Assembly: GCF_963921235.1 (NCBI RefSeq)
Contig: NC_086097.1
Location: forward strand, 75,084,001-75,148,000
DNA from: Mobula hypostoma
Taxonomy: Eukaryota
DNA: 64,000 nucleotides
Direction of reading: 5' to 3'
The notes below the pieces were generated by a model, which had not been told where the DNA came from, searched no databases, and saw only the letters and a program-made list of their open reading frames with translations. Below are positions 5,686 through 57,413 of the stretch, piece after piece. The first letter of the stretch is position 1. Each line of letters opens with the position of its first letter. Position numbers and translations under genes: made by a program.

Positions 5686-6021
5686 AAAAAACACGAGAAG
5701 TCGCTGTCTGAAAATAATATTACACCGAAGTGAAGATGTAAAGTAACTCATTGTAAGTAATTTTAATGTTTTCTTAATCTATGTAACAGATAATGGTAAA
5801 ACAACAGAATACAAGCTCAATAATGCTAACGTGCTGTTGTAGTGAAAAGATCTAACACAAAGTATTAATTACTGTAAGTTATTAATTATTTTGTAAATGA
5901 CCTTTTCTTTCAAATCTCCTAAAAGAGCTGTGAAGTTCAGAATCTACAACAGTGACAAAGGATGAAGAGAAGGCCAGTCAGTTTCATAAGCCTGTTCAGC
6001 TACAGTGAGTTTAGATCTGTG

Positions 6022-7335
6022 TGTTGCAACGAACGAGGCGAACCCAAGCGCAGGACAGCAGGACACAGGCACGGAGGTTGCATTAGGATGTAGGCGCAGG
6101 CGTGAGCATTGAACGGCAAACAGGAGAGAGTGCAGGAAGGCAGGAGACAGGCAGAACTGATTTTGACATGGAGCATAGAAAGGGAAGTGGCAGACAAAAC
6201 ATTTCTTAGCACGGAGAGACAGAGTTACACAGGTAAACCTCGGTGCTGAGGTAAAACTTAAAAGACTTATCTTGACACAGAGAGACTGAGGCTACGTCCA
6301 CACTAGACTGGATAAATCTGTAACCGAAGCTTTTTCTTTTCATTTTGACCCTCTGTCCACACTGAAACGGCGTTTTCCTCCCCAGAAAACGGAGCTTTTC
6401 TAAAACACTCTCCAGAGTGTTTAAACCTGAAAACGCCAGTTGGGCGTTGCAGTGTGTACGGGGTAAACAGAGGTTTTAAAAAACCTGTCGTCCCTTTCAC
6501 CAGTGAAGAGATTATGGCTGTAGGAAATGTTTCCAGGGTGACCCCTCTGTGGGACTGGGGAAGATGTTGGTGGGGCCACCCGGGGGTATGTGTAGCTATT
6601 GTAGTGGGTGTGAGGCTGGTATTGTGTCAGTTTTTCAATGTTTGTCGTTAGCCAGGTCATACTGTCCACGAACTCCCTGTCAGTTGCCTCCATACGCTCC
6701 AGTATTTGTTTTTTTTTAGTTTTAAGTCCTCCTGTGCGAGGGCCAACAGCTGTTTGTCGTTTGGCAATTTCCTTTTAAGTTTTTCTAGTCTGTAACTGGA
6801 CAAATGCGCACCAAGTATACCGTTTCCTCTTTGCTTGTTTTCTGTAGATGTGTCCTGCGCATGCCCAGTAGGAGGCGATTCGCCCAAATACCCGTTTTAA
6901 TGAGGACGGAGGTATTTCAAAAATGCCTGGTGTGGACGCCTATCGTTTTTATGCAAAGCTGGCATTTTCAAAATTATCTGGTCTAGTGTGGACGTAGCCT
7001 GAGTTTCACAGGTAAACTTCGGAAATGGAGAAGAACTTAGAAAACTTATCTTGACACAAAGAGACTGAGTTTCACAGGTAAATCTCGGTACTGAAGCAAA
7101 ACTTAGAGCAGACAGTCCTAAGCGGCCGGGAAACGTTAATTACCACACAGGCAAAACCAACAATCTGTCAACTAGTGGGCGCAAAGCTGGGGTTCTTATG
7201 CTGCAGGTCTTGATGAAGACCAGGTGTGCTGCCATCAAAGGAAATGAGGAGAAAATGGGGAATTAATGGTTGGAACCATGGCACAATCAAAGGGAATTAG
7301 GAGAAAATAGGGAATTAATGGTCAGGAGCGTAACA
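6022..7335 (-). repeat. 3' LTR of the chromovirus, split by a Harbinger insertion
   Basis: Aligns by eye to 10503-11143 once 6290-6999 is removed. Polypurine tract (minus strand TTGAGGGGAAGATAT) adjoins at 7336-7350. Contains ~65-bp tandem subrepeats (GAGTTTCACAGGTAAACCTCGG...CTTGACAC). Confidence 0.9.
6290..6999. mobile_element. Non-autonomous PIF/Harbinger DNA transposon
   Basis: Perfect 19-bp TIR GGCTACGTCCACACTAGAC / GTCTAGTGTGGACGTAGCC; 3-bp TSD TGA at 6287-6289 and 7000-7002; absent from the sister LTR. Confidence 0.9.
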
Positions 7336-7379
7336 ATATCTTCCCCTCAATGGGAGCCTCCAGGCTTGTCCGGATTATC

Positions 7380-10030
7380 GTGATGGAAATCTTGGATGAG
7401 GGAAGGATCCAAGATGAAGGAGCAGGGAATCTAGGTGCACTCCTCTGGGCCGTATCCCTCCCAATCAACCAGGTACTGGAGACCCTGCCTCGGCAGTGCA
7501 CATCCAGTATTCACCGGAGGGTGTAAGCTGGGTGGTCGTTAATGATCCAGGCGGGTGGAGGAAGTTCAGCAGGAGGGCACAAAGGGCTGACAGACACAGG
7601 TTTCAGTTGGGAGACGTGGAACGTGGGATGAATGTGTATGGGTCTGGGCAGTTTGAGTCTGACCACCTAGGGGTTGATAATGCTCTCAATTTCGAATGGT
7701 CCGAGGTAGCGAGAGGCAAGTTTCTTGCATTCATTCTTGAGGGGGATATCTTCAGAAGAGAGCCAAACCTTCTGACCAGGTGGATAATTGGGCGCAGGAA
7801 TTCAATGGTGATTGGCAATCCTCCGGTTGCGGTCAGCTGAACAGAGCAGGGCCGCGCGTGCATCCTTCCAGACCTTGTGGCACCTGCGGAGATGGGCCTG
7901 AATGGGCAGGAAACAGAGGGTGTTGGTAACCCAGGAAGCATTTGAAGGGAGACATTCCAGTGGCGGTGCTGACCAGGGAGTTGTGGGCATACTCCACCCA
8001 AGTGAGATGGGTGCTCCAGGATGGCGGGTTGTTGGCGGATATGCAGCGCAGTGCTGCTTCCAAATCTACTGTTAGTCTGTGGATGGAAATCAGAAGACAG
8101 ACTTACTGAGGCTCCAAGGGCTTAATAAAAGGATCTCCAGACTTGAGAGATGAATTGGGGGCCCTGGTCAGAAATTATGTCAGAGGGCATTCCATGAAGG
8201 CAAAAGACATGATGGACAAGGAGGTCGGCTCTTTCACAGTCTATAGAGAGTTTGGGAAAGGCTACGAAGTGCATGGCTTTGGAGAAACGGTCCACCACGG
8301 TGAGTACAGCAGTGTTCCCGTGTGAAGGGGGTAGTCCAGTAATGATATCCAGAGCAATATGAGACCAAGGGCGGGTAGGGACAGGTAGGGGATGAAGCAA
8401 CTCAGCAGGTCGTCGATGGGAGGTTTTTCGGCGGGCAAATACAGAACAGGCAGAGATGAAAGAGCGAGTGTCAACATCCATGGGGGGCCACCAGAAATGT
8501 CACTTCAGAAGGAACAGAGTTCGATCGATTCCGGGATGGCAGGCAAAATGAGAAGTATGCCCCCACTGGAGAACCTGAGATGGAACCGAGTCAGGCACGG
8601 AGAAATGATTGGAGGTCCGTTGCCTGGGTCAGGTTGAGTCCGTTGGGCCTCTTTGACTATGGATTTGATCTCCCAGGTGAGGGTAGCCACTACACAGGAT
8701 GGTGGAAGGATGGTCTTGGGGTTGGGAAGGCCCTCCTTGGAGACATATTGATGAAAGAGAGCATCGAAATTCCTGTTCCTGGACCCCGGACGATAGGTGA
8801 GCGTGAATCTGAAATGGCCAAAAAATAATGCCCAACGGGCTTGGCGGGAACTCGGGCATTTGGCGGTTTAGGTGTATGCCAGGTTCTTGTGGTCTGTCCA
8901 GACGATGAATGGATGTTCATCTCCCTCCAGCCAGTGCCTTCACTCCTCCAAAGTGAGTTTGACAGCCAGTAACTCCTGGTTCCCAACGTCATAGTTCCGT
9001 TTGGCAGGGGATAGATGGCGAAAGAAGAAGACGCAGGGATGGAGCTTTTGGTCTGGGACGGAGCGTTGGGAGAGGACCGCTCCCACCCCAGAGTCGGAGG
9101 GGTTGACTTCCACAATGAATTGGCGAGAGGGGTCAGGTTGAACCAGGATGGGAGCGGAGGTGAAACACCTCTTCAGCTCCGAGAAGGCTGAGTCCACTTT
9201 GGGGTTCCAGTGAAAAGGGGTCGCAGGAGAGGTGAGTCGAGTAAGGGGTGCTGCCACCCAGCTGTAATCCCTGATAAAGTGATGGTAGAAGTTTACGAAC
9301 CCCAGAAATCACTGGAGTTGTTTGAGCATTGTAGGTTTTGGCCACTCTGCCACCGCCTGGATCTTTTTGGGATCTGCCTTCACTGGCCCGCTCTCAATGA
9401 TGTACTCCAGGAAACTGACAGAATGGGCATGGAACTCGCACTTCTCTGCCTTAACGAATAGCTTGTTCTCCAAAAGCCTCTGAAGAGCCTGACGGACATG
9501 GTGGGCATGTACCTGAAGACTACGGGAGAAGATTAAGATATCGTCCAAATAAATGAAAATGAAACGGTTAATAAAGTCCTTAAGGACGTCGTTTACCAGG
9601 GCTTGGAAGATGGCAGGGGCGTTGGTGAGACTGAGTGCCATGACCAGATATTCGAAATGACTGAGGGAGGTGTTAAAAGCTGTTTTCCATTCATCTCCCT
9701 CCCTTATCCTGACCAGGTGATAGGCATTCCGTAGATCCAACTTAGAGAAAATTGTGGCTCCGTGAAGGGGCTCGAAAGCAGAGTTGATAAAGGGCAGGGG
9801 ATACTTATTCTTTATGGTGATGCTGTTCAGGCCCCGGTGATCAATGCAGGGGTGCTGTGAGCTGTCTTTCTTCCCCACAAAGAAGAAACTTGCGCCTACA
9901 GGGGAAGATGAGAGGTTGGATAATACTAGCCGCGAAAGAGTCATTTAGGTAAGCCTACATTGCTTCCCTTTCTGGTCGGGACAGGTTGTACAGCGGAGTG
10001 GTGGGTAGAGAGGCTCTGGGGAGAAGGTCA
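7380..10030 (-). pseudogene. pol: pol (RT, RNase H, integrase, chromodomain), disrupted
   Basis: [22 protein letters not shown]; RNase [30 protein letters not shown]; integrase [15 protein letters not shown]; chromodomain QYLVDWEGYGPEE near 7430-7480. Confidence 0.9.
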
Positions 10031-10486
10031 ATTGATATCCGGTTGGTTATCCCAAACAGCTGTGTCTGACGCTAAGGCACTTCCCCGCAACAACCCCATG
10101 ATATAAGCAATCTTTGACTTATCCGTGGAGTACGTGGACAACTGCTGTTCGAACACAAGGGAACACTGAAGAAGGAAGGCCTGGCCCTTGGCCAAATCCC
10201 CAGCATCGTGCTCTGGTTCAGGTACGTGAGGCTGTCTTGGCAGGGGTGTTGCTGACACGTAGGGGGTTGCCGCCACAGGCTGACTGGGCTGGTTAGACAG
10301 GGTTCCAGGAGTGGGTTGAGTAAAATAAGTGGATGCATGGTCCACCTGCTCACCGATTGGCGTGATGTGAGCAGACAGGGTATGGAGGTTCTCCATGACC
10401 TCCCGGAGGAGTTGGTCATGCTGTCCCAGTAGGGAACCCTGGCTGGTGAGGACTTGCTGAAGGGTATTCGTGTCCACTGGGTCCAT
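10030..10486 (-). pseudogene. gag: gag N-terminal part (PEG10/RTL1-like capsid), truncated
   Basis: ATG in GCCACCATGG context; PEPEH..GD....AFLLQCSLVFEQQ...DKSKIAYIMGLLRGSAL motif; joins directly to pre-RT sequence. Confidence 0.85.
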
Positions 10487-10502
10487 GGTGGCCAGATCGT
10501 TC

Positions 10503-11143
10503 TGTTGCAACGAACAAGGCGAACCCAAGCACAGGACACAGGCATGGAGGTCGCCTTAGGATGTAGACGCAGGCGTGAGTGTTGAACGGCAAACAGGATG
10601 GTGTGCAGGAAAGCAGGAGACAGGCAGAAATGATTTTGACACAGAGCGTAAAAGGGGAAGCGGCAGACAAAACTTTTCTTAGCACGGAGAGATGGAGTTA
10701 CACAGGTAAACCTCGGTGCTGAGGTAAAACTTAAAAGTCCTATCTTGACACGGAAAGACAGAGTTTCACAGGTAAACCTCGGAAATGGAGAAGAATTTAG
10801 AAAACTTACCTTGACACAAAGAGACTGAGTTTCACAGGTAATTCTCGGTACTGAAGCAAAACTTAGAACAGTCCTAAGCGGCCGGGAAACGTTAATTACC
10901 ACACAGGCAAAACGAATGATCTGGCAACTAGTGGGTGCAAAGCCAGGGTTCTTATGCTGCAGGTCTTGATGAAAACCAGGTGTGCTGTCATCAAAGGAAA
11001 TTAGGAGAAAATGGGGAATTAACGGTTGGGACCGTAACCGTACCTTCCCCTCAACGGGAGCCTCCAGGCTTGTCTGGATTATCGCAATGGAAATCTCGGA
11101 TGAATTAGGAGAAAATGGGGAATTAATGGTCGGGACCGTGACA
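10503..11143 (-). repeat. 5' LTR of the chromovirus
   Basis: Direct repeat of 6022-7335 with TG...CA ends, followed by the TSD. Confidence 0.9.
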
Positions 11144-11149
11144 CTGTGT

Positions 11150-11346
11150 TTCTTGCTCTTTTTTTTGCTGCCATTTATGCACTTTTATTGCGCAGAGGGG
11201 CGTGACGTTTGATGTTTTTCTTTGAATGGGTTGGTTCTATGGTTATTTGCTTTGTGACAGTCTGTGCAGAAGATGAATCTCAGTATCTCAGGGTTGTATA
11301 CTGCATACATAGTTTGATAATAAATGTACTTTGAATCTCTGAACTG
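11150..11346 (+). repeat. LINE 3' UTR remnant (probably Rex1-type)
   Basis: GAATCTCAG...TTTGATAATAAATGTACTTTGAA tail; the reverse-complement form occurs at 52690-52732. Confidence 0.55.
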
Positions 11347-14404: not shown

Positions 14405-17173
14405 TTATTCCCCTCCCAAATGCTGCCTGACTTGCTGAGTTCCTCCAGCATTTTGTGTGTGTTGCTCAAGATTTCCAGCATCTGCAGAATCTCTTGTGCA
14501 CATCATTTCCTCAGTACTGCAATGGACCCTCAATTTTGCATTAATGTGATTGACCCTCTGGAGAGGCAATGGAGCCCGCAAACTTTTGACTCAGATCCAA
14601 GATTGCAACCAGCTGAACCAGAGCTGACACACCAGTTGTAATTGAGCCCATTTTATGTGTGCTCGCAGCAGTGATGTTATGTTTAGGGTGCTACAGCCTG
14701 AAAATCATGTCTTAATTTGCTTATTTTCCATACTCTACTCAATCATAAACCTGCTCTCGTCAAATGATTTTAAAATAATATTGTACAGGGAAGCATTTTG
14801 TGCATAAGTGTTAATCTGTCAATAAAAATGCACAAATCAATTTCAATGCTTTAGTCTCATTCAACTAAAATTGTCTGAATGATATCATAACAGCAGGACT
14901 GAATATCATCAAGTGTTGCTGAGGATTGGGATGTGAGATAACTTTCAATAGAAGGTGTACATTTAAAGTAGGTCTCAGACCTATCAATTCAGCCTGCTTT
15001 AGGCCATGCTGAATAAATTTGTTGTTAATCATGTCACTGCCAATGTTGAAAATTCTCCAACCATATTGATTTTTATGGCATTTTTGTGGGTTTGCACTAC
15101 CCTTTCTGCCTTGTTGCAAACCTACAAGTGACACATAATCACATCAGGAAAGATTCAGATACTGTGCACAACAAATGACTGTAAGTAAGTAACTTGTCTG
15201 CAATATTCATGATTAAATGACAAGTATAAGTTAGTACTTTTTTGTGTACTTTGTGTTCCCTTGTCACTCATGTTGGACTCAGTGATAATACACAAGCTGA
15301 TTCTGGGTAGTGTGACATATTTGTACTTCAGAAACAACATTAGCAATTCAGAGACACATGGAGGATTCTTGAGAGTTTTCTAATGTTTGCCCCACATTGA
15401 TGGTACTGATGTCATGCTTTGCAAACTTCATGATGTTACTCAATAGCGGTAAAAAAAAGCAATAGCTTAAATAAATTAATGTAGGTAGACAAATAATTAC
15501 CAACTTTAATTTGAGGCATTGAATAATATATTTGTACACCGTGAAAGTAAGGGGTTTGTTTTAAAAAGTAAATTTTATGATTCAGAAAGCATGGCTGGGC
15601 ATATAACTTAAACTGGCATGTAAATCCCTGTGTTGGAGACTTTCTATAGTTTACGAAAACAGGCATCTGGCAGAAAGGAAAATCCTGTATGAAGTGAACA
15701 TACTGGGACTTCCTGCTGTTTCAGCAGTGCTGTGTCCCTGGGTGAGACATCTGTTGTATAAATATCAGATCATGATACCTTTTTTTGTCTAGAGATTCTC
15801 TTCTTTAAAGCACTATTCCTTTTGTTCCTCAGCATGCATTTGTAATATCTTCTGAATGTATTTTATTAATACTGGGCTATTTTCTTATGGAGTGCAGATG
15901 AAAAGTCCTTATTCAGGATTTTAAGAAAAAAAATCATTGCAACCTTGATTAAATTTCTTCACTTCCTTTGAGGCATAGTATAGATCCAGATGTTATCCCT
16001 TTCACACATGCTGGGTGACAGTGTATCATCGTGACCCTTTCTTTTGTAAAAGCCCATGGCACCATCTCTGCGGTAATGACTACACTAGCCTCCGGCCTGA
16101 CCACAGCTGTCTGCATACAATTTTTTTTTCTGTATCCTCCTTGTTATTTGCCATCGTCTCTCAGTGAAGCAGATTTTGATCAAGAGGACATTAGATTACC
16201 TTCTTTAAGTCCCCTATTTTAAAAGAGTCAACAACAATTCAACAAAAATTCTATTTAAAAACAAATGTTAATAAGTTCTGTCTGCCATGTTAATATGTAA
16301 GTAATTCTTTTGGATATGAAAATTGTCAAAATAAGTGATTCATATGCATATGCTGAGGCTCTATGCATTCGATATCACAAACTTAAATCATATATCATCA
16401 AAACTACATAACAAGGAAAACAGTCACACAATGATTGGTCATTTAAACAATCTGTGGTTTGTTTTAGCTAATTACTGCACATTACTCTTGCTAACTGATC
16501 AGATTTCTTGTGATTAAGTTCTTTCAATGAAGTTTATCCCATTCCTTCAGTTAATTAAACTCATCTCATCATGAAAGCTAGTCATCATTCAGCATTCTGG
16601 ACAAGTGTCCATTTGAATGAGGAGCAGCTGGCTATATATTTGTGGTAGCCGCACGTTGCATCTGCAGGTGACCGCCACTTAAGGTTTCTGGATATTGATT
16701 AGATGCAGAGGTCAATTTTATCCTCTGCTCAGTTTACTTTCCAGAGACCAATTCATAGGCCTCTCCAAATGACCACTAACTCAGAATATACATCATTGGA
16801 CTTTGAAAACGAAGTGCATTTAGTTGCCTCTCATCTTGAGCCAGTTTCTCTGGGAAAGAAACTGTATTGATTGAATGAGCAGTTATGCTTCAACACTAAC
16901 GAAAACTAAGATAATTTAACCTGTGACGGATTCTTTTCTGTCAGTGTTGTTTTTTATGTCACTGCAGTTGATACACTTGGGTCTTGTTCTCGTACATAAC
17001 ACATGAAATATTTGCAATTACAAAGCCTCTAGATAAAATTAACCTCGAAAGTTTCATAAGTAGTGTAATACATATTGTGCCATTTTCTATTTGCTACAAT
17101 TCTCAAGATGGTGGTTGGCAGCTTGTTGTCACTCATGTTTTTCATTATTTTGTCAGTCACACTAAAAAGCTTG

Positions 17174-17751
17174 TGTAATGTGCTGTAAGGTTTCACTGCT
17201 AATGTAATGGCTTCTTTGTAATGTTCACTGCTGAGGTAACGGTTTCTCTGCAGCAGCAATGTTTGGGTTATGGCTGGAGATAACAGGATGCATGTTAGCC
17301 AATAAGAAATTTTTGCTGTGTCTTGTGAGTCTGGAAAGATGTTTTCTCGCGGTCTTTTATTGAGGAGAGATGAAGAGGGAAGATGCGTGTGGAGGGATCT
17401 GGTCGACCACTGGACGGAGTGGACTGGGATCTGAGCGTCCAATTGTCGGCGACGTTCAGAGGAGACCAATGGTGGAAGAATGGCGACTGAGTGAGCTCCA
17501 AAATGACTTTGACTTGACTTTGGACCCTTTCTTTTATTTTGTTTATTTTCATTACTAACCCTATATTCAGATTAAAATTCATAGATTTCAATCATTTAAT
17601 TGCATATAGTGTACTGTCTGATATTTTGCATTGTGGGATTGTAACTGGGGGTACATTACACAGCATCCACACAAACATGATTACCCAGTTTGGCGGGGCC
17701 GATGGCTGATTCCTCTAGACGAACATGAGCTGGGTGAGCCTGAGGGTTATA
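17174..17751 (+). repeat. 5' LTR
   Basis: TGTAATG...GGGTTATA, direct repeat of 23653-24229 with scattered, mostly transition, differences. Confidence 0.95.
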
Positions 17752-17755
17752 CTTG

Positions 17756-17775
17756 TGGGGGCTACGTCCTGGATT
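17756..17775 (+). promoter_or_regulatory. Primer binding site, tRNA-Pro type
   Basis: TGGGGGCTACGTCCTGGATT versus the complement of the tRNA-Pro 3' end TGGGGGCTCGTCCGGGATT (one insertion, one mismatch). Confidence 0.8.
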
Positions 17776-17779
17776 GATT

Positions 17780-19189
17780 CTGTTGGATGCTGTGTGATTG
17801 CCCTGTTTAAATCAGTGCTGGTAATTAATGCGTGCGTGTTGAGTGGGGTGGATATTCGTACTCTAGATGAATTGTTAATTCCATTTTTGAGTATGTTTAA
17901 AGCTGTTGGCAAAGTTGAAATCGTAGCGCGATGGTTTGATAAAATTGCGGGCTCAGACCTTATTTTAGTTCAGACTAGCGCTGACATAATGGTGAGGTGG
18001 GGCCATGGCCTGTCCATACTGTCAGGGAGGAGGAGAAGGGAGCCCAGCAGGCTGGGTCACAAGCTGAGTTACCCGCAGTTGGGGGCGGAGATTTCAGAGA
18101 CAGGGTTCTATTTTTTCTGAGGAGTGAGGGGAAAGAGTGGTTGGATTTGGAAAGTTTAATTAGTCCACATCCCCCAGTGAAGAGTGAGGGTTCTGAGTTG
18201 GCATCAGCCCTTACTTCCCTGTCGAATAAGCGGCCCAGTGTACAGGCAGCGGGTCCCCGCTGGAAGCTAAGAATTTTCTCTGGAGTAACAACCATCCCCG
18301 AGGGGGAGGAGGAGTATGAGACGTGGGTGGAGCAGACCTCTTAGTTGTTGAGTGAGTGGCAGTGCTCTGATGACGAAAAGCAACAGGGATTGGTTGAAAG
18401 TTTGAAGGGGTTAGTGGCTGATGTAGTGAGAGGTGTGACAGTTAACCAACCCTCTGCTCCCTTTGCTGAGTATCTAGATGCTTTGGAGAGCGCTCTTGGT
18501 GTGACAGGGAGCACACTGGAGATCCTGGAGGGGTTTGAAAACATGTGTCAGGAGAATGGGGAGAAGCCTTCCGTGTACCTTTCTCGGCTAGAGAGACAGC
18601 ATAAGTGTTTGCGGCGCTGGGGGGCGGAGGGGGGGTTCATTCAAGGGGCTGAGGTGGATAAGTTAGGGATGTACCAGATAGCCAAGGCTGCCCTGCCTCA
18701 GGACATGACTGCTTGGGGTCTCCGGTAGTCCTGTAAAACGTGGCCCCCTCCCCCCATTTGTTCAGCTGATCACAGAGTTGCAGGAGGAGGAGAACGTGTT
18801 GGGGCCACGAGAGGACTCCATCATCAGGGTACAGTCCTCGGTAGCAGCCCCTTGTGGTGAAGTGACTGGGGCCAGCCCAACCCGGGAAATGGTGAAGGAG
18901 ATGGTGGCAGAGCTGAGAACTGAGATGTCCCGGGTGTTAACAGCGGGTGTGGACCCTCCGTATGATAGGACTGGTAGAGAGAGCCCCCTCACTAAAGGGA
19001 CGGACTACACAGAGGGCTGCGAGTGGCCGGGGTTCCGCGAGAAGAGGGGCGGCTGGTAGCTTGTGCTATAACTGTGGGGAAGGGGGACACTTCCGGCGGG
19101 AATATGAGTGGCAGGAAGCCCCTCGGAGAGCGAGCCCCTGGGTATCTAAGCAGGAAGAGGTGTCAGGAAACTTAGAGGAGACCCAGTGA
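17780..19189 (+). pseudogene. gag: gag, PNMA (paraneoplastic Ma)-like capsid plus zinc knuckle, disrupted
   Basis: KLRIFSG....PEGEEEYETWVEQ, WQCSDDEKQQGLVESLKG, QENGEKPSVYLSRLE, CYNCGEGGHFRRE; several stops and frameshifts. Confidence 0.85.
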
Positions 19190-19225
19190 GGGAACGGCCT
19201 GGTGTCTCTGGGGGAACACGTTCTC
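19165..19225 (+). promoter_or_regulatory. -1 programmed ribosomal frameshift signal (slippery heptamer plus H-type pseudoknot)
   Basis: A GGA AAC in the gag frame, 6-nt spacer, stem1 GAGACCCAG/CTGG(T)GTCTC, stem2 GGGAACG/CGTTCTC. Confidence 0.7.
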
Positions 19226-22200
19226 AGCGATGTACCAAGGAACCCCTGAAAGCAAAAGACCCTATTCCTGAAGGCTTAGTGGACCCCGCTCCAGAGTGTC
19301 GCTACGGATAGAGGGAATATATGCTAAAGCCATACTCGACACTGGGTCGCAGGTCACGTTACTGTACCGTTCATTTTACAACCAGTATCTGAAGCATTTA
19401 CCCTTGACACCATTCAGTGCACTGGAGATTTGGGGTATCAGTGCTGGTGATTATCCGTACGACGGTTATTTGTCAGTGAAACTGGAGTTCTTGGAGGCCA
19501 ATGTGGGAGTGTCTGAGGTCTTTGATACATTGGTGCTGGTTTGTCTGGACCCTGTTGAGAAGGGCGACATTTCAATTCTGGTGAGGACCAACACCCCTCT
19601 CGTGAGGAGGCTCATGGGGGCCTTGCAAGGAGAAGGCTGGTGAGAGCTTTCTGGGAACATTGTCCGTGTACCTGGGGATTTGAGCTGCTTTTGAGGAAGC
19701 ACGTGGCAGCATTGGGCCGGATACCGAATTTAGACAAGGGACTATGTGGTTCACCCAGTCAAAGCAAATGGTGATACGGCCCGGGGAAGTAGCGAGAGTG
19801 ATGGAGACCCCCAAATTTCCCGGAGTGCCTGAGGACAAAGTCCTCTTCGTGGACACTCTGGAAGACCAAGCGGAGGAGTCAGGATTTCCTGCTGGGGTAC
19901 TGGTGAGGCCAGAATTGCAGAAGCCCTCGATTGTACAGGCGAGCAGGATGGCAGTGATTGTCAGGAACTCTACGAAGAGGGAGATCACCTTCAAGCAGGG
20001 GATGCCCCTGGCGCATCTGTTCCCGTTGATGGTAATGTCTAGTGTCCCTGTGAGGCACACCGGGGAGAAACTATTGGAAAAGGGGGGAAGTTGACTGCTG
20101 AGTTATTCAACTTCGGGGACTCCCCTGTGCCACTGGGTTGGAAAAGGAGGTTGGTAGAGAAGATGTTGAAGCTGGAAGGTGTCTTTTCCCTTGGCGAGTT
20201 TGATGAGGGTTGTTCCAAGAGCACTCACCATACTATCCAGGTGACCGAGGACACTCCGTTTAGAGAGAGGTCGTGGCGACTGGCCCCTGCAGACGTGGAG
20301 GACGTTCAGCAGCATCTGTGTAAGTTGAAGGAAGCTGAGATCATCACTGAGTTCTGAAGCCCCTGTGCGTCCCCAATAGTAGTGGCCCAGAAGAACGGAA
20401 AGGTACATGTGTGTGGACTATAGGACACTGAACAGGTGCATCGTCCCTGACCAGTATTCGGTCCCGAGGATCGAAGATGCACTGGCCTGTCTGAGTGGTG
20501 CGAAGTGGTTCAGTATGCTGGATTTGAGGAGTGGATATTACCAGATCCCCATGAGTGAGGCTGACAAAGAAAAGATGGCATTTATATGCCCCCTGGGATT
20601 CTTCCAGTTCGCAAGGATGCCCCAGGGCATATCGGGAGACCCTGCAACCTTCCAGCGGGTCATGGAGAAGATGGTGAAGGATATGAATTTGCTTGAGGTG
20701 TTGGTGTACTTGGATGACCTCATAGTATTTGGATCCACCTTGGAAGAACGTGAAGCGAGGCTGCTGAAGGTGCTCAGCTGCCTGAAAGCTGAAGGGTTAA
20801 AACTTTCCCTGGACAGGTGCCAGTTCTGCAAAACGTCTGTTAGCTATGTCTCACTGTATAGAGTAGCTACAGATCTGGCTAAAATCGAGGCAGTGACCAC
20901 TTGGCCAAGGCTCTAGACTGTGAGCGCTCTGTACTCGTTCCTTGGGTTCTGTGGTTATAATCGGAGATTCATGAAGGGCTACGCCAATGTGAGTCACCCC
21001 TTGAATCAGCTTCTGTGTGGTTACCCTCCCTCGGGGAAGAAAGGGAAGGAGGAAAAGGACAGGAGGATGGAGAATATCTAAACCCATCTGAGCCCTTTGG
21101 ACAGAGGTGGGATGTAAAATGTGAGGAGGCTTTTCAGTTGCTGAAGGAGTTGCTGACCTAGGCGCCGGTGCTGGCTTTTGCGGACCCTCGATTGCCTTAT
21201 GTACTGCACACAGATGCCAGCCAAGATGGTTTAGAGGGCATCCTGTATCAGGAACAGCACATCAGGTTGAGGCCTGTGGTATTGTCAGCCGGAGTTTGTC
21301 GCCCTCTGAGAGAAACTATCCCATGCACAAGTTGGAATTCCTGACGTTGAAATGGGCGGTGGTGGATAAGCTGAGTGACTATCTCTACGGGGCCAAGTTT
21401 GTGGTAAGGATGGTCAACAATCCCCTAACTTGTATCCTGACCTTGGTGAAACTGGATACCACAGGCCATCGGTGGTTGGCAGAGTTGTCTGCCTATGATT
21501 TCAGCCTGAAGTACCAGCCGGGGAGCAGGAACATTGATGCGGATGCTTTGTCCCGATGTGTGCATGAGGGACTGGACAGAGACGAGGAGCAGGAGATCAT
21601 TCCTGCCCCTGGGGTGAAGGCCATATGTCAGTTTGCCATCACCGTGAAGGCAGAGGAAAAGGAGAGGCAGGATCGAGCGGTGGATCACTTGGGGGCTTCT
21701 GATGATGCCATTCCCCAAGTTCACTGTAACCTGACTACTCTGAAGACAAATCAGCTGCCGGAATTGAGTTCTGTGGAAGTGGCAGCTACTCAGCGAGATG
21801 ATCCGGGCATTGGTACTATTTGGTCCGCGGTTGAAAAGGGAGACGTGGCTCAGGTGGAGAAGACAAAACATGCTTCGTGCCTCCATTACTGAAAGAAAGG
21901 CCTCGGTTGGAGTTGAAGGACCAGATCTTATATCGGGTCACGTCACCCCCGGACCAACCACGGCGTTGCCAGTTGGTTCTGCCCGAGCAGTATCGGAGGA
22001 TTGCGTTGAAGTCACTTCATGATGATTCTGGACTTTTGGGGGTGGAAAAGACCTATGGATTGCTCAGAGACTGGTTTTGCTGGCCCCGAATGAAGCCCAA
22101 GGTCGAAGAATACTGCAAGTCATGCATTCGCTGCATATGGCGGAAGACACTGCCTACATGGGCAGCTCCTTTGTCCCACTTGCAGAGTGCAGGGCCCCTG

Positions 22201-23093
22201 GACCTGGTGTGTATGGATTTCCTGTCAATAGAACCCGATGCCAGCAACAGGGCGAATGTCTTAGTCATCACAGACCAGATATGCTCAGGCTTTTCCTACC
22301 AAGGATCGGAGGGTGACTACGCTGCCAAAAGTGTTTTGGGAGAAGTATTTCATTTATTATGGCCTTCCCAGGAAGATACATAATGATCAGGGATGGGACC
22401 TCGAGAGCAGACTCATCTATGAGTTACTGGGCATTCTTGGGGTTGAGAAGTCGAGGACCACGCCCTATCACCCGCAGGGTGATTCCCCAGCCAGGGAGGT
22501 TTAATCGGACCTTGCTAGACATGCTCGGGAACCTGGAGATCAGCAAGCAGAGCAGGTGGAGTCAACATATTGGGCATATGGTTCACTGTTACAACTGTAC
22601 ACGAAATGAAGCTACTGGGTACTTGCCATATTATCTGATGTTTGGGCGCGAGGTGAGGGTGCCCACTGACCTTTGTTTTAGGAATGACGAGGGTGACTTA
22701 CCACCGAAGCCTTATCTGAAATATGTGTCTGATTTGAGGAGAGAGCTGAAAAGGGCTAATGAATTAGCTGGGGTTGCGGCGGCCAAGCAGAATCGAGGAA
22801 ATAAGAGGAGGTATGATCAGAAGGTGAGGTTCTCCCAACTCCTGCCTGGAGACCAAGTCCTCATAAGAAACTTGGGACGACCTGGAAAGCACAAGTTGGC
22901 TGACCGCTGGGCGGCTATGCCCTATGTGGTGGACAGTCAGATGCCAAACCTACCAGTTTTCCAGGTGAAACCAGAGGAGGAGAATGGGCCTGTCAAGATT
23001 CTCCATCGGAACCACCTGTTGCCCCTGGGAAGAGCGGTGCAGGTAGACCCAGAGCCCGACTTAGAACCTACACCTAGTAAGAGGACTCTGTGA
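19190..23093 (+). pseudogene. pol: pol (protease, RT, RNase H, integrase), disrupted
   Basis: Protease [33 protein letters not shown]; RNase H ERNYPMHKLEFLTLKWAV; integrase LVCMDF, IHNDQG, RTTPYHPQG. Confidence 0.92.
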
Positions 23094-23639
23094 AAACGCG
23101 GGGCGACTGCAGGGCCCACAGCAGGAGAGGCTGGGCAGGGCCCTACCCATGAGAGGGATACAGATTCGGAGGATGATGATCTGGAAGTGTGGTACATGCT
23201 GCTTTTCGCTAACTTCCCCTTGATTGAGGAAGAGATTCCTGGCCCTTCTCCCACTAAGTCAGGTGAGGTGGGGGGGGGGCTATCTGTGGGCAGCCTGGGT
23301 TACAGCAGGACCCTGAAGGAGAGGAAGCGGGGCCTGGACACGGGACAGAGGGCTCCGAGTTGCAGGGGGGCCTGAGTGATAGATCGAGGGAGGATTCGCA
23401 AGCAGACCCGAAGTATCCCCAGTAGCGCCTGACCCTGAAGAGTTAGGTGAGGAGGTACGGAGGTCTCAGAGAATTAGGAGACCACCAGATAGGTTGGCCT
23501 ATGTAGCGCCTGGGGAACAGGGCGTGATCTCTACTGTTTTGGGGAGCTATGTCACTGCCCTTTGCACCTGGATTGGGCTTTGTGTTTTGCAGGAAGGGTT
23601 GGCGAATTATCTCAACGTCATGAGGACCTGACTAAATTT

Positions 23640-23652
23640 GGTAGGGGGAGTG
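23640..23652 (+). promoter_or_regulatory. Polypurine tract
   Basis: GGTAGGGGGAGTG immediately before the 3' LTR. Confidence 0.8.
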
Positions 23653-24229
23653 TGTAACGCACTGTATGATTTCACTGGCAATGTAATGGCTTCTTTGTAA
23701 TGTTCACTGCTGAGGTAACGGTTTCTCTGCAGCAGCAATGTTTGGGTTATGGCTGGAGATAACAGGATGCATGTTAGTCAATAAGAGATTGTTGCTGTGT
23801 CTTGTGAGTCTGGAAAGATGTTTTTTTGCAGTCTTTTATCGAGGAGAGATGAAGAGGGAAGATGCCTGTGGAGGGAGCTGGTGGACCACCGGATGGAGTG
23901 GACTGGGATCTGAGGGTCCGAAGGTCAGTGACGTTCGGAGGAGACTGATGGTGGAAGAATGGCGACTGAGTGAGCTCAAACGTGACTTTGATTTGACTTT
24001 GGGCCCTTTCTTTTTTTTGTTTATTTTCATTACTAACCCTATATTCAGATTAAGATTCATAAAGTTCAATCATTTAAATGCATATGGTGTACTGTCTGAT
24101 ATTTTGCATTGTGGGTTTGTTACTAGGGGTACATTACATAGTATCCACGCAAACGTGATTACCCAGTTTGGCGGGGCCGACGGCTGATTCCCCTAGACAA
24201 ACGCGAGCTGGGTGAGCCTGAGGGTCACA
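23653..24229 (+). repeat. 3' LTR
   Basis: TGTAACG...GGGTCACA followed by TSD CTTG. Confidence 0.95.
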
Positions 24230-24769
24230 CTTGGAATAGAATAAAATATGTATATTTTGATGCCTTTATAAATACAATGATGCAAATCATGCATTGTATG
24301 GATATAAAATATATCAAAAGAGAAATGCAGTCATATAAATGTATCTTGGGTGCTGGAAATATAATTCGGATATCTCGAGTAAATACAAGAACTTAAACAT
24401 AATACTCCATAGAGTTATTTTCTACTTTCAGACCAACAAAACTAAAATTGCTCCCAAATAAACAGAGTGATCGTTGAACAAGTGGAAGTTGATGTTATCA
24501 ATTTAAAATCATTTTACATTGTGTTTCAGAATGATTTAACTAAATCCAAAAAACAGTCTTAAATCTGAACAAACTACCTCGATATGATGGTTACATTGGC
24601 CAGCAAAGATTGGGAAGCTATAATAGAATGTATGATCACAAGTAAGGAATGGAGGAACATTTAAAGAAATAATTCATAATTTACTACAAATAGGTGTCAC
24701 AAAAATTTATGACTGGTCAGTGGGACTAAGTGTGTTTTGACAGTGCTTTGAACTCAGTTCAGAAGCAAT

Positions 24770-40199: not shown

Positions 40200-41301
40200 A
40201 TAAGACCATAAGATATAGAAGCAGAATTATGCTGGATCCATTTTCCCTCTCAGCCCCAATCTCCTACCTTCTCCCCATATCCTTTCATGCCCTGACCAAT
40301 CAAGAATCTATCAATCCCTGCCTTAAATATATGTAAAGACTTGGCCTCCACAGCTCCCTGTGGCACTGAATTCCACAGATTCGCCACTCTCTGGCTAAAG
40401 AAATTTCTCCTCATCTCTCTTGTAGAAGGATGCTCATCTGGTCTGAATCTGCGTTCTCTGATCCAAGACTCTCCCACCATAGGAAACATCCTCTCCACAT
40501 CCACCTTATGAATGCTTTTTAACATTCGATAAGTTTCAATGAGGTCACCCCTCATTCTTCTGAACTCTAGTGGATACAGGCCCAGAGCCAGTGAACTTTC
40601 TTCATATGACAAGCTGTTCAATTTGGAATCATTTTCGTGAACCTCCTTTGAACCCTCTCCAGCCCATCTTTTCTAAGATAAGAGGCTCAAAACTGCTCAC
40701 AAATGAGGGCTCACCAGTGCTTTATAAAGCCTCAACATTACATCCTTGCTATTATATTCTAGTCCTCTTGAAATGAATGCTAACATTGCAGTTGCATTCC
40801 TCACCACAGACTTAACCTGCAAATTAACCTTTAGGGAATCTTGCACAAGGACTCTCAAGATTCTTTCACCTCAGATTTTCGATTTTTTTCTCCATTTAGA
40901 AAATAGTATACACCTTTATTCCTTCTACCAAACTACTGCATTTCTTCTAACAACGTGCATAACCATACACCTCCCGACACTGTATTCCATCTGCCACTTT
41001 TTTACCCGTTCTCCTAATCTGTCTAAGTCCTTCTGTAGCTTCTCTACTTCCTCAATACTACCTACTCCTCTACCTCTCTTCAAATTGTCCACAACCTTTG
41101 CAACAAAGCCTTCAATTCCATCATCAAAGTCATTGACATACAACATAAAAAGAATTGGTCCCAGCACAGAACCCTGTGGAACACCACTAGTCACCAGCAA
41201 CTAACTACAAAAGGCTCCCTTTATTCCCACTCTTTGCCTTCTGCCAATTAGCTACTGCTTTATCCATGCTAGTATCTTTCCTGTAATACTGTGGGCTCGT
41301 A
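40200..41301 (-). mobile_element. CR1 LINE 3' portion
   Basis: VTSGVPQGSVLGPILFMLYVND and RRMRGDLIETYRML ORF pieces; tail near 40200. Confidence 0.92.
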
Positions 41302-42155
41302 GCAGTGGATGTTGTATATTTGGACTTTCAGAAGACCTTTGACAAGGTGCCACAGATGAGGCTGCTTACCAAGTTACAAGCCCGTGGTATTACAGGAAAG
41401 TTATTGGCATGTTAAAGAATTGGCTGATTGACTGAAGGCAGCGAGTGGGAGTAAAAGGATTCTCTTCTGGTTGGCTGCCAGTGACTAGTCGTGTTCCGCA
41501 TGGGTCAGTGTTGGGACCGCTTCTTTTTATGCTATATATCAAAGATTTAGATGATGGAATAGATGGCTTTGTTGCCAAGTTTGCAGATGATATGAAGGTT
41601 AGTGGAGGGGCAGGTAGTGTTGAGGAAACAGGTAGGCTGCAAAAGGACTTAGACAGATTAGGGGAATGGACAAAAAAGTGGCAACGTTGGAAAATGCATG
41701 GTCATGTACTTTGGTAGAAGAAATAAATGTGCAGACTATTTTCTAAATGGGGAGAACATCCAAAAGTCTCAGGTGTATAGGGAGTCCTTGTGCAGAACAC
41801 CCTAAAGGTTAACTTACAGGTAAAATAGGTGGTGAAGAAGGCAAATGCAACGCTAGCATTCATTTCAAGAGGTCTAGTGTACAAGAGCAGGGATGTGATG
41901 TTCAAGTTTTATGAGGGTCTGGTAAGGCCTCACCATGAGGTATTGTGAATAGTTCTGGGCTTCTCATCTCAGAAAAGATGTGGTGGCATTGGAGAGGGTT
42001 CAGAGGAGGTTCACAAGGATGATTCTGGGAATGAAAGGGTTATCATACGAGGAAACTCTGGGTCTGTACTCACTGGAATTTAGAAGGATGGGGTTGGGGT
42101 GGGGGGAATATCATTGAAATCTCTCGAATGTTGAAAGACCTAGACAGAGTAGTTG
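41302..42155 (+). mobile_element. CR1 LINE RT portion, head-to-head with the previous copy
   Basis: VDVVYLDFQKTFDKVP, VPHGSVLGPLLF, KFADDMK motifs. Confidence 0.92.
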
Positions 42156-52734: not shown

Positions 52735-55078
52735 TAGGACAATGAGAGATAGGAGCAGAATTAGGCCATTCAGCCCATTGAGTCTGCTCCCCATTCCATC
52801 ATGACTGTTCATTATCTCTATCAACCCCATTCTCTTGTCTTCTCCCTGTAGCCTTTGACACCCTGATTAATCAAGAATGGATCAACCTCCACTTTAAATA
52901 TTCCAATGAGTTGCTCTGCATAGCTGTCTGTGGCAATGAATTCCATAGATTCGTAACACTTTGACTAAAGAAAACTTTCCTCATCTGTTCTAAATGGACA
53001 ACCCTCAATTCTGACACTGTGCTCTCTGGCCGTAGACTCCCTCACTATAGGAAATACCGTCTCTACATCCACTTCATCTTCGCCTTTTAATATTTGACAC
53101 ATTTCAATTAGATTCCCCCCCCCCCCATTCTTCTAAATTCCAGCAAGTACGGGCCCAAATCCATCAAACACTCCTCATCCATTAACTCTTTTATTCCCAG
53201 AATCATTCTCATGAAGCTCCTGGACCCCCTCCAATGCCAGTACATCCTTTCTTGGGTAGGGGGCCCAAAACTGCATTCAATACTCGAAGTGTGGTCTGAC
53301 CAATGCCTTATAAAGCCACGGCATTACATCCTTGCTTTTGTATTCTAGTCCTCTCAAGATGAATGCTAACATTGCATTTCCCTTCTTTACCATGGACACT
53401 ACTTGCAGGTTATCCTCTAGGGAATCCTACATGAGGACTATCAAGTACCTTTGCACCTCTGATTTTCTTTTTTTAAATTTTCTCCCCATTTAGAAGGTAG
53501 TCCATGCCTTTATTCCTTCTGCCAAAATGCATGACCATACGTTTCCCTACACTATATTCCATCTGCCACTTCTTTGCCCATTCACCCAGTTGGTCAAAGT
53601 CCTTCTGCAGACATCTTGCTTCTGCTCCTCCACCTTTCTTCATTTTCACAAACTTGGCCACAGTCATTAAATCATTGACATATAACATGAAAAGAAGTGG
53701 TCCTAACACCACCCCCCCCCCATGGCACACCAGTAGTCACTGGCAGCCAACCAGGAAAGGCCCTCTTTATTCCCATTCTCTTCCTCCTGCCTGTCAGCCA
53801 ATCTTCTATCCATGGTAGTACCTTGGAATTTACTGATTAGTTCTGAGGGGATGATGGTGTTAAATGCCAAGCTGTAATCGATAAGGAGCATCCTGATGTA
53901 TGCATCTTTGCTGTCCAGATGTTCCAGGGTTGTGTGGAGAGCCAGCAAGACAGCTCTGTGGAGCTATTGCTTCGGTTCGTGGCTTGGAGCAGATCCAAGT
54001 CACCTTTCAGACAGGAGCTGGTATGGTCCAACACCAACCTCTCAAAACACTTCATCACTGTGGATGCAAGTGTCACTGGTCAACAGTCATTTAGACAGGT
54101 TACCACATTCTTCTTGGACACTGGTATGATTAAAGCCTGCTTGAAGCAGGTGGATACCACATACTGCCAGAGCGAGAGGTTGAAGATATCAGTGAATACA
54201 CCAGCCAGTTGGTCAGCACAGGTCTTCAGTACTTGGCTAGGTACTCCGACTGAACCTGATTATTCTCGAATGACCATTACTTATGTCTTCACAATCTTCT
54301 TAGCTACTTCTTTCAGAACCCTGGGGTGCAGTCCATCTGGTCCAGCTGATTTATCTACCTTCAGACTTTTCAGCTTCCCAAGCACCTTCTCCTTAGTAAC
54401 AATGCACAGCCTCCAATGTTGTCGTACTTCAGGCATTCTGCTAGTGTATTCCACAGTGAAGACTGACACAAAATACTTATTACATTTGTCCGTCATTTCC
54501 TTGTCCCCATTACTACCTCTCCAGTATTATTTTCCTGCAGTCTGAAAGCCACTCTTGTCTCTCTTTTATTCTTTACATATCTGGAAAAAAACCTTTCTGT
54601 ATCCTCTTTTATATTATTGGCTAATTTGCCTTCATATTTCAGCTTTTCTCTCTTTATAGCTGTTTTAGTTGCCTTCTGTTGGGTTTTAAAAGCTTCCCAA
54701 TCCTCTACCTTTCCACTAATTTTTGCTTTTTCTTTTATGCTGTTTATTCACTTCCCTTGTCAACCACCATTGTCACATCCTCTCTTTAGAATACTATTTC
54801 AACTTTGGGATGTATCTTTCCAGTACCTTCCAAATTTTCCCCTGAAACACCAGCAATTGCTGTTCTGTCATCATCCCTGTTAGTGTTCCTTTCCAATCAA
54901 CTTTGACCTGCTCCATTCTCATGACCTTGGTAACTCCTTTACTCCACGTTAACACTGATGCATTCAATTTTTGCTTCTTCTCAAACTGCAGGGACATTAA
55001 GTCTATCACGTTGTGATCACTGCCTCCTAAATGCTCCTTTCTTTACGTTAAGGTCCCTAATCAAATCTGGTTCATTGC
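52735..55078 (-). mobile_element. CR1 LINE, long decayed copy
   Basis: [52 protein letters not shown]1 tail near 52735-52790. Confidence 0.88.
53823..54262 (-). mobile_element. Rex1 RT fragment embedded in CR1
   Basis: [42 protein letters not shown]. Confidence 0.85.
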
Positions 55079-57413
55079 TTCTCCCTGATGGCCACAGTGA
55101 GAGGACAGCATTGCCAGAGTGGTGGGGGTCCTTGCTGATACATGCTGCTTTCCTACAAAAGCACTCCATGTAGATGTGCTCAATGGTGGGAAGGGCTCTA
55201 GCCCTGATGATCTGGGCTATCTCCACTGCTTTTTGTAGGATTTTCCAATCAAAGGCCTTGTTTTCATACCAGGCCATGATGCAACCAGTCAACATACTCC
55301 CCACCAAAGTTTTAGATGCCATACTGAATCTTCACAAACTTCTTAGGAAATCGAGGTGCTGCAGTGCTTTTTTTTTGTAATTGCACTTGCATGCTGGGCC
55401 CAGGACATATCCTCTGAAATAATAAACACTGAGGAATTTAAAGTTAATGACTCCCTGCAGCTCTGATTCTCCCAATGAATTTTGTTTCATTGGACCTTCA
55501 GATTTCTCTTGCTGACAGGGAGTGAGAGGTTGTTGTTGTGGCACCACTCAGACAGATTTTCAATCTCACTCTTACATGCTGATTCATCACCACCTTTGAT
55601 TTGCTTAAAGACAGTGGTGTTGACCGTAACCTTTAAAAATGGCATTGGAGCTGTGCTTAACCTCGCAGACATAAGTACAAAGTGAGTAGAACGGGGGGCT
55701 TAGCACACAGCATTATGGTGCACCAGTGCTGACGGAAATGAAGGAGATTTTGTTTTCAAGCTGAACTGGTGAGGGTATGTAAGTGAGTAAATCGAGGATC
55801 CAATTGCACAAGAATGTATGTAGGCCAAGGTTTTGAAACTTATTGATTAGTTTTGAGGGGATTATAGTATCGAATGCTGAGCTGCAGTCAACATGTCCAC
55901 ATGTTTCAGGGTTGAGTGAAATGCCAATGAAATGGCATCTGCTGTGGACCTGTTGTGATGGTCAGCCAAGTCACTTCTCAGGCAGCAGTTGATATGTTTT
56001 ATCACCAACCTCACAAAGTTTTTCATCACAGTGGATGTAAGTGCTACTGAATGATAGTCACTGAGGCAGGTTACCACATTCTTCTTTGGTCCTGGTATAA
56101 TTGAAGTCTGCTTGAAGCAGGTGGGTGCCTCAGACTGCTGAAGAGAGAGGTTAAAGATAAAGGTGAACTCACCAACCAGTTTATCACCACAGGTCTTTAG
56201 TACTGAGCCGGGTCATGCAGCCTGGATCCCAGCAGATCAGCAGTTCTGAAATACTCAAACTACCCCATCTGGCACCAACAATTGTTCCACGGTCAAAGTC
56301 ACTTTGATCACATTTTCTTCCCTATTCTGATAGTTGGTCTGAACAATTGAACTTCTTTACCATGTCTGCATGCTTTTATGCATTGAGTTGCTGTCACATG
56401 ATTAGATGATCAGATATTTGCATTATTGAGCCGATGTATAGTGGTTGCTGAATAAAGTGGCCACTGAGTGTATTTCTCCTTACAAATGATACCTGCATTT
56501 TGTGTTTTGGTTAGTTTGATTATAAGATCAAATCCATTTATGAAGATAAATTCAACTTTGCTTTCTTTCAGCAGTTAAATAAGGGAAAAGGCATATAAAA
56601 TTACATTCTATGTTTTAGGTAGGTGAATGGTCAATTTGGCCTATTTTAACTTATGGCTTCTTTAAATGATGATCTACTTGCCTTTCATGAATAGGTGGTG
56701 CCTAAATAACCCCCAAAATATTGTCACTTAGAAGAGAACGTAAGCTCAAGATCTACTGGTCAGCAGACAATTGAGGTAGATTCAATGCATGAGCTAGTTC
56801 TCATAAATGAATGAATCGGGAGAATGTCTGTTTTCCATTTATATTTTTAACAATTCGACACTTATCAGTTTAAATTGTCTCTTGGTTTGGAGATCATTGT
56901 GATATTTGGTAAATTACTCTTTCTCATGTTGTAAATGATTTCCTTCCATGAAATGAATGAACAACAAGGTCACGGCTCCTGCATGCACACCTATAATGCA
57001 AGACAATTATTACAGTGTATGATTTTATGTATGTTATTATCTTTTCATTGTATATTGAAGAAGCTGTTTGATATTTATCTGGTGAGTTTACTTTAGCTCT
57101 ATACAGTCAATGCAACATTTTCCCAATTATTTAAAAATATTTCCTCTTAAGATATCAGGACAATATTTTAAAATCCTCTTGACCTAACACCATTTGTAAG
57201 CGAGAAAGAAATTTCTGTCTACCTGCCCAACCAGCCCCTTTCAAAACATAGAATTAATATCATACCTTAATCTCCCACATTCCTGGAATATAAGACTATT
57301 AAAAGTTATCGTTTCCAGTAGAATACATATTATGTACATTTAATTTAAGGTTCTTCAAGGGATTAGGATCCCAAGAATGAATAAGTAGTTGGCCATCTCT
57401 TAACTATGTTATA

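Follow-up and report, generated by a model that had tools for sequence, protein, structure and literature searches.

The window analysed here, 64,000 nucleotides of Mobula hypostoma DNA (NC_086097.1, positions 75,084,001 to 75,148,000 of the forward strand), contains at 17174-24229 a Ty3/Gypsy (Metaviridae) element that is full-length but decayed and whose Gag is of the PNMA type; the candidate frameshift site lies at its gag/pol junction (Table 1). As in PNMA-related Ty3/Gypsy elements, there are LTRs, a target-site duplication, a primer-binding site, a polypurine tract and the domain order PR-RT-RH-IN. The two LTRs differ by 37 transitions and 15 transversions over 581 aligned bases (K2P 0.096, about 10% divergence). 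We take the primer-binding site to be tRNA-Pro-like. The bases between it and the 5' LTR (17752-17755) read CTTG, as does the target duplication, and the end of the LTR is therefore slightly ambiguous.

Both the PNMA capsid domain and the CCHC knuckle were detected in the gag of the window (Pfam PNMA PF14893, E 8.6e-18; zf-CCHC, E 5.6e-05), which shares 29% identity with macaque PNMA3 over 181 aa. The N-terminal RRM-like domain PF20846 had no match in the window or in protein P0011; the gag of an independent intact element, L001, scored just below the cut-off, and a precomputed match exists for the relative P0001. The protease is 73-75% identical to named ray proteins, and the nearest named relatives of the element as a whole are likewise ray proteins (Mobula, Hypanus). 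The 136 aa that separate protease from RT (19684-20091) gave no Pfam or PDB sequence match; a dUTPase in pol has been reported for the PNMA proxy element (PMC11011659).

This copy of the element is a fossil. Its gag is interrupted by stop codons at 18342-18344 and 18726-18728 and by three frame changes, all upstream of the heptamer, so that no ribosome arrives in frame at the site here. With gag broken upstream and a non-canonical heptamer, the copy is dead and cannot use the frameshift site, a correction to a preliminary description of this DNA. A domesticated PNMA gene was also considered and rejected, since LTRs and pol are present, gag is broken and the family is multi-copy.

Table 1. Features of the element and of its gag/pol junction, in window coordinates.
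Feature	Position	Strand	Remark
Target-site duplication, left, CTTG	17170-17173	+	same 4 bases at 24230-24233
5' LTR	17174-17751	+	direct repeat of 23653-24229
Primer-binding site	17756-17773	+	directly behind 5' LTR
Decayed PNMA-type gag	17776-19189	+	start approximate; natural stop TGA 19187-19189
Heptamer A GGA AAC, non-canonical	19165-19171	+	gag frame, S-G-N
Pol-domain region	19171-23630	+	Pfam RVT_1, RT_RNaseH, Integrase_H2C2
Spacer TTAGAG, 5-6 nt	19172-19177	+	length kept in L001, sequence not
Stem 1, 5' arm	19178-19186	+	partner 19199-19208; two-sided changes in L001
Loop 1, gag stop codon TGA	19187-19189	+	L001 equivalent is TAG
Stem 2, 5' arm	19190-19196	+	7/7 identical in L001
Stem 1, 3' arm, bulge at 19203	19199-19208	+	
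Loop 3, 10 nt (L001: 13 nt)	19209-19218	+	
Stem 2, 3' arm	19219-19225	+	G-U at 19191/19224
Polypurine tract	23638-23650	+	directly before 3' LTR
3' LTR	23653-24229	+	
Target-site duplication, right, CTTG	24230-24233	+	

The gag/pol junction, its family copies and an independent element

The preliminary description had placed an AGGAAAC heptamer in the gag frame, a bulged stem 1 and a stem 2 with one G-U pair behind it, and the gag stop inside loop 1; all of these coordinates matched, and both stems pair in the way described. A further G-U pair, 19177/19209, could lengthen stem 1. The -1 frame had been described as reading on to the protease apart from one later lesion. It is stop-free across 19150-19311, and the lesion, near 19280, is specific to this copy, whose protease lies in another frame downstream of the break.

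When the interior of the element was scanned for H-type folds with an in-house heuristic score (no published program), a single one of 635 windows reached such a score, and it is a poly-G stretch at 23236. For the window and for L001 alike, the nested minimum-energy fold contains stem 1 and is not unusually stable (z 0.15 and 0.32). Energy estimates, which are rough and use an assumed pseudoknot penalty, disagree: they favour the knot narrowly in the window (-17.8 against -16.9 kcal/mol) and a two-hairpin fold in L001 (-21.5 kcal/mol for the knot against -25.0 kcal/mol). No frameshift family of Rfam was matched, and the region 17000-24500 gave three weak, unrelated matches.

We aligned contigs from four of 24 listed runs to positions 19060-19340 (1323, 1315, 1340 and 98 contigs, respectively). 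The canonical heptamer G GGA AAC accounted for 59, 83, 91 and 90% of depth in the four runs and was carried by 61, 52, 63 and 17 contigs. The G-U pair of stem 2 (19191/19224) is G-C in 98, 97, 99.8 and 94% of family depth, and 19, 31, 19 and 7 contigs lack the frame break near 19280. In an examination of 20 rows taken from 40 of the 151 variant rows, this copy was in the minority in all four runs at nine positions, four of which are products of CpG decay, the first base of the heptamer among them. These data, together with TCG GGA AAC in L001, bear out the suggestions that TCA at this site is a CpG-decayed TCG and that the ancestral heptamer was canonical, G GGA AAC being the majority form in the family contigs; the preliminary description had proposed a family consensus as the check. 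The variant table cannot link variants and hence gives no covariation. When depth is summed, the pseudoknot exceeds the gag tail by a factor of 4-15 and the start of the protease by a factor of about two; depth is not copy number, and we take this only as a faint hint that the pseudoknot is conserved between subfamilies.

L001 is the only confirmed locus among 36 metagenome-contig candidates; scans of viral contigs confirmed none of 9, 28 and 42 candidates, and those of prokaryote genomes none of 38. It encodes an intact 469-aa gag and a stop-free pol in the -1 frame that overlaps gag from position 1872 and is open from before the heptamer. The preliminary description had named gag and pol sharing one frame in intact copies as evidence against its reading, and in this intact copy pol is offset by -1.

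Compared with the window, L001 is 44% and 47% identical in the flanks of the signal and at one of six positions in the spacer, and 70-100% identical in the stem arms. Both stems keep the register they have in the window: taking the two sequences together, 94% of pair cells are paired, versus 29-56% in slid registers. In stem 1, the pairs 19177/19209 and 19179/19207 have changed on both sides in L001, and a third pair (G-C) is kept through a shift of the bulge. In stem 2, the pair 19191/19224 is G-C and the outer pair is lost, and two-sided changes are absent from the DNA. The covariation expected in both stems was thus found in stem 1, while stem 2 offered one one-sided change. A shuffle control (141/500) says nothing with two rows, L001 being the sole independent DNA sequence.

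Protein traces across the clade and the proposed mechanism

To this DNA comparison we added 155 proteins, 77 of which contain the knuckle: 62 gag-only proteins, seven with the protease in frame and eight that were dropped for odd tails. GN stands within the last 12 residues of 30 of the 62 gag-only proteins, against a background of 2.4%, and is absent from the linker of six of the seven relatives with an in-frame protease. Tails of 15-60 residues occur in 58 database gags, of which 43 carry GN at 14-31 residues behind the knuckle, and this trace spans echinoderm, ray, teleost, turtle and PNMA3. The third residue after GN is Gly in all 23 database gags that end five residues after it, and would encode the beginning of stem 1. 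Alignment A2 has a nearly invariant G-N column, but its rows had been chosen mostly as GN-bearing, and the column was not used as evidence. Among the public models, P0198, P0210, P0212, P0217, P0303 and P0011 either join gag to pol across the shift site through apparent false introns or are transposon gags named 'paraneoplastic antigen Ma1-like'.

Seven distinct database peptides span the junction in the pol frame (from Hypanus, serrasalmids, Denticeps, Pimephales, Cyprinus and one further record), and all start with G-K-L, which is how the canonical heptamer reads in the pol frame. Once the window and L001 are added, the nine junction peptides yield 36 forced, 89 open and one impossible pair in 126 cells, compared with 21-69 impossible pairs in slid registers. 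The pair 19181/19205 is G-C in four of the nine, A-U in three and G-U in two. Nearly all forced pairs fall in stem 1, which had played no part in the choice of peptides; the corresponding comparison for stem 2 is partly anchored by the search pattern and consists mostly of open cells. Of 20 distinct pol N-termini, 18 retain the R...RS spacing although the residues next to it vary. In the pol N-termini P0241-P0253 and their kin, M...H was read by eye at the inner end of stem 1, and this subgroup would have an unbulged, longer stem and shorter loops.

In a quick tree of 70 rows (midpoint-rooted, made without a clade test), five of the seven in-frame elements fall into one clade with an SH-aLRT of 99, which reads as a single loss. 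A PNMA-type subclade (P0002, P0003, P0024, P0049 and P0090) in which gag and pol share a frame and the linker is free of GN represents an apparent loss of frameshifting.

Judged from these sequence comparisons, the signal is a real, ordinary -1 frameshift signal at the level of the family and a fossil in this copy. We consider it highly probable that this family of PNMA-type Ty3/Gypsy elements produces Gag-Pol by -1 slippage on G GGA AAC, stimulated by a pseudoknot. In the family, the upstream frame contains an X XXY YYZ heptamer that this copy lacks, G_GGA_AAC is reported among the most shift-prone heptamers (PMC5009743), and the 5-6 nt spacer of the window and of L001 falls within the 5-8 nt range given for -1 PRF signals (PMC11299033). 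The alignments demonstrate the frames, the family heptamer and stem 1, and stem 2 is likely to form. From analogy with known -1 sites we infer stalling, slippage and its rate: a ribosome holding Gly and Asn tRNAs on G GGA AAC would stall at the H-type pseudoknot 5-6 nt downstream, and a minority would slip back one base by tandem slippage. Ribosomes that have slipped would miss the gag stop codon of loop 1 and continue through protease-RT-integrase, and the signal would set the Gag:Gag-Pol ratio in active family members.

A real -1 site could instead be stimulated by the stem 1 hairpin alone, with stem 2 as a by-product of the E-R/R-S constraint in the pol linker. The lack of two-sided changes in stem 2 and the place of stem 1 in the nested folds of both elements are in keeping with this, and the 3' arm of stem 2 can join a competing hairpin. 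The competing hairpins, however, differ between the window and L001, whereas the register of stem 2 is kept despite a 3-nt change in loop 3; moreover, its lone G-U pair is G-C in nearly all other copies, the R...RS spacing persists among changing neighbours, and PNMA3 uses an H-type pseudoknot (PMC5009743), all of which leaves a hairpin-only stimulator rather unlikely. We regard as very improbable an incidental heptamer with independent production of pol, whether through reinitiation or through a spliced RNA. Many pol gene models do begin at ATG or GTG near the gag stop, and in-frame gag-pol relatives exist (7/77 knuckle-bearing proteins), but V, M, G or K occurs at these codons, so that the start is not conserved, whereas the upstream G-K-L is, and elements that turned in-frame have mostly lost GN. 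Chance complementarity combined with a frame change that arose through decay of a single dead copy, which the many random breaks here and the near-zero z-score of the nested fold might suggest, is hardly credible, as the same frame offset, heptamer and stems recur in ray, teleost and other relatives and in the intact L001, which contradicts it.

Relation to PNMA3 and other known systems

It is known that -1 pol frames are common in animal LTR elements, that PNMA3/5 and PEG10 carry frameshift signals and that PNMA genes come from Gypsy12_DR-like elements (PMC5009743, PMC11011659, PMC3835772, PMC3406341, PMC3789554, PMC12839241, PMC12166091, PMC11299033 and 10.1101/2021.04.23.441185). A literature search largely confined to freely available papers found no report of the signal in PNMA-type elements and no tie to that of PNMA3. 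The added value of our analysis is this link; the mechanism itself is ordinary.

The signals of PNMA3 (Ma3) and PNMA5 share with the element family a PNMA-type Gag and the GGGAAAC heptamer (PMC11299033), and that of PNMA3 also an H-type pseudoknot, with about 20% shifting reported for Ma3 (PMC5009743). In contrast to the element, where the shift leads into a real pol, the PNMA3/5 shift leads into a disordered tail without likeness to pol (PMC11299033). PNMA3 and PNMA5 are also host genes, whereas this copy is a dead transposon, and the gag stop of PNMA3 lies 15 residues after GN, whereas that of the window element is in loop 1. Two papers of 2024 differ on whether the PNMA3/5 frameshift matters, and neither finds pol likeness behind the shift (PMC11011659, PMC11299033).

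Macaque PNMA3 (P0027), which clusters with human PNMA3, has its S-G-N 20 residues behind the knuckle, compared with 21 in the window and 21 in the turtle protein P0083. Using base constraints derived from the protein, only one of 17 registers permits an 11-pair stem in PNMA3 without an impossible pair; this register is the one that stem 1 has in the window element (shuffle p ~0.001; one of 448 windows of the protein passes). For 14 further long-tailed gags other than PNMA3, one of them starfish-clustered, we used registers 43-45, which were fixed after the PNMA3 result and bracket the two registers of the window; these gave 20 impossible pairs against a shuffled mean of 44.5 (0/2000). On the quick tree, PNMA3 is surrounded by GN-bearing gags. 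Its nearest relative there is P0083 and not the window element, and the short tail of P0083 misfits the register, two of four testable pairs being impossible.

The shared position of GN and the restriction of the PNMA3 stem to the element's register make descent of the PNMA3 signal likely, and on this protein-level evidence we think it probable that the two signals are homologous. The opposing reading, in which the element's signal works and the likeness of PNMA3 reflects convergence on a common heptamer, draws on the frequency of GGGAAAC with a pseudoknot in retroviruses (PMC3835772) and its occurrence in PEG10 of another lineage, as well as on the tree position of PNMA3 and the misfit of P0083. 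We nevertheless hold convergence to be doubtful, given the nearly constant distance of GN from the knuckle, the single permissible register in PNMA3 and the GN-bearing gags around it. The preliminary description had called the site 'PNMA3/PEG10-style' and a 'fish retrotransposon counterpart' of the PNMA recoding device. The likeness to PNMA3 stood, although 'counterpart' is too weak a word for what is probably homology, and the PEG10 part amounts to analogy, as PEG10 belongs to the sushi-ichi lineage.

It appears fairly likely that all PNMA-type Metaviridae (echinoderm, ray, teleost, frog, turtle) inherited one ancestral device, in which G GGA AAC stands about 20 codons behind the knuckle and precedes a pseudoknot whose stem-1 geometry is fixed, and that PNMA3 kept this device after losing pol, as a relic older than vertebrates with a disordered -1 tail in place of the old pol linker. 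Such a clade-wide ancestral signal would explain the origin of the PNMA3/5 frameshift, so that its retention becomes the point to explain, and would provide naturally varied sequences in which to follow covariation of the pseudoknot. It would also explain why gene callers split or mis-join PNMA-type elements.

Membership of the element in the PEG10/sushi-ichi group was rejected, as the Gag of the window is PNMA-type and not sushi-type; PEG10 derives from the sushi-ichi lineage (PMC3406341, PMC3789554). PEG10/Edr and RTL3, likened here by heptamer and place alone, have GGGAAAC at the gag/protease junction (PMC11299033, PMC11011659), but represent a separate metaviral lineage and a separate domestication (PMC3789554, PMC11011659). 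Gypsy12_DR and Gypsy-30_Ami, likened by description only, share the PNMA capsid domain, the CCHC knuckle, the PR-RT-RH-IN order and LTRs, and our literature search found no description of a frameshift signal for either. Within the PNMA-related Metaviridae, one related subclade differs in having gag and pol in one frame. The retroviruses SRV-1, MPMV, JSRV, FIV and visna have the same arrangement of heptamer, 4-7 nt spacer and H-type knot with a stem 2 of 6-7 bp, but they are unrelated and mostly have a shorter stem 1, a loop 1 of 1-2 nt and no gap between the stems (PMC3835772).

Further features of the window

A second decayed LTR element occupies 6020-11140 on the minus strand, with repeats at about 6059-7400 and 10532-11150 and an RT match at E 1.4e-27. 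It is presumably sushi-like. Its left repeat is interrupted by an unrelated insert, and its gag seems to pass directly into RT near 10030, so that the gag/protease junction appears to be deleted. Dispersed repeats in both orientations, 70-80% alike, lie at 40700-41930, 53100-56200 and 59060-60700. They are probably LINE fragments, and among them is a 271-nt inverted pair at 40992-41683.
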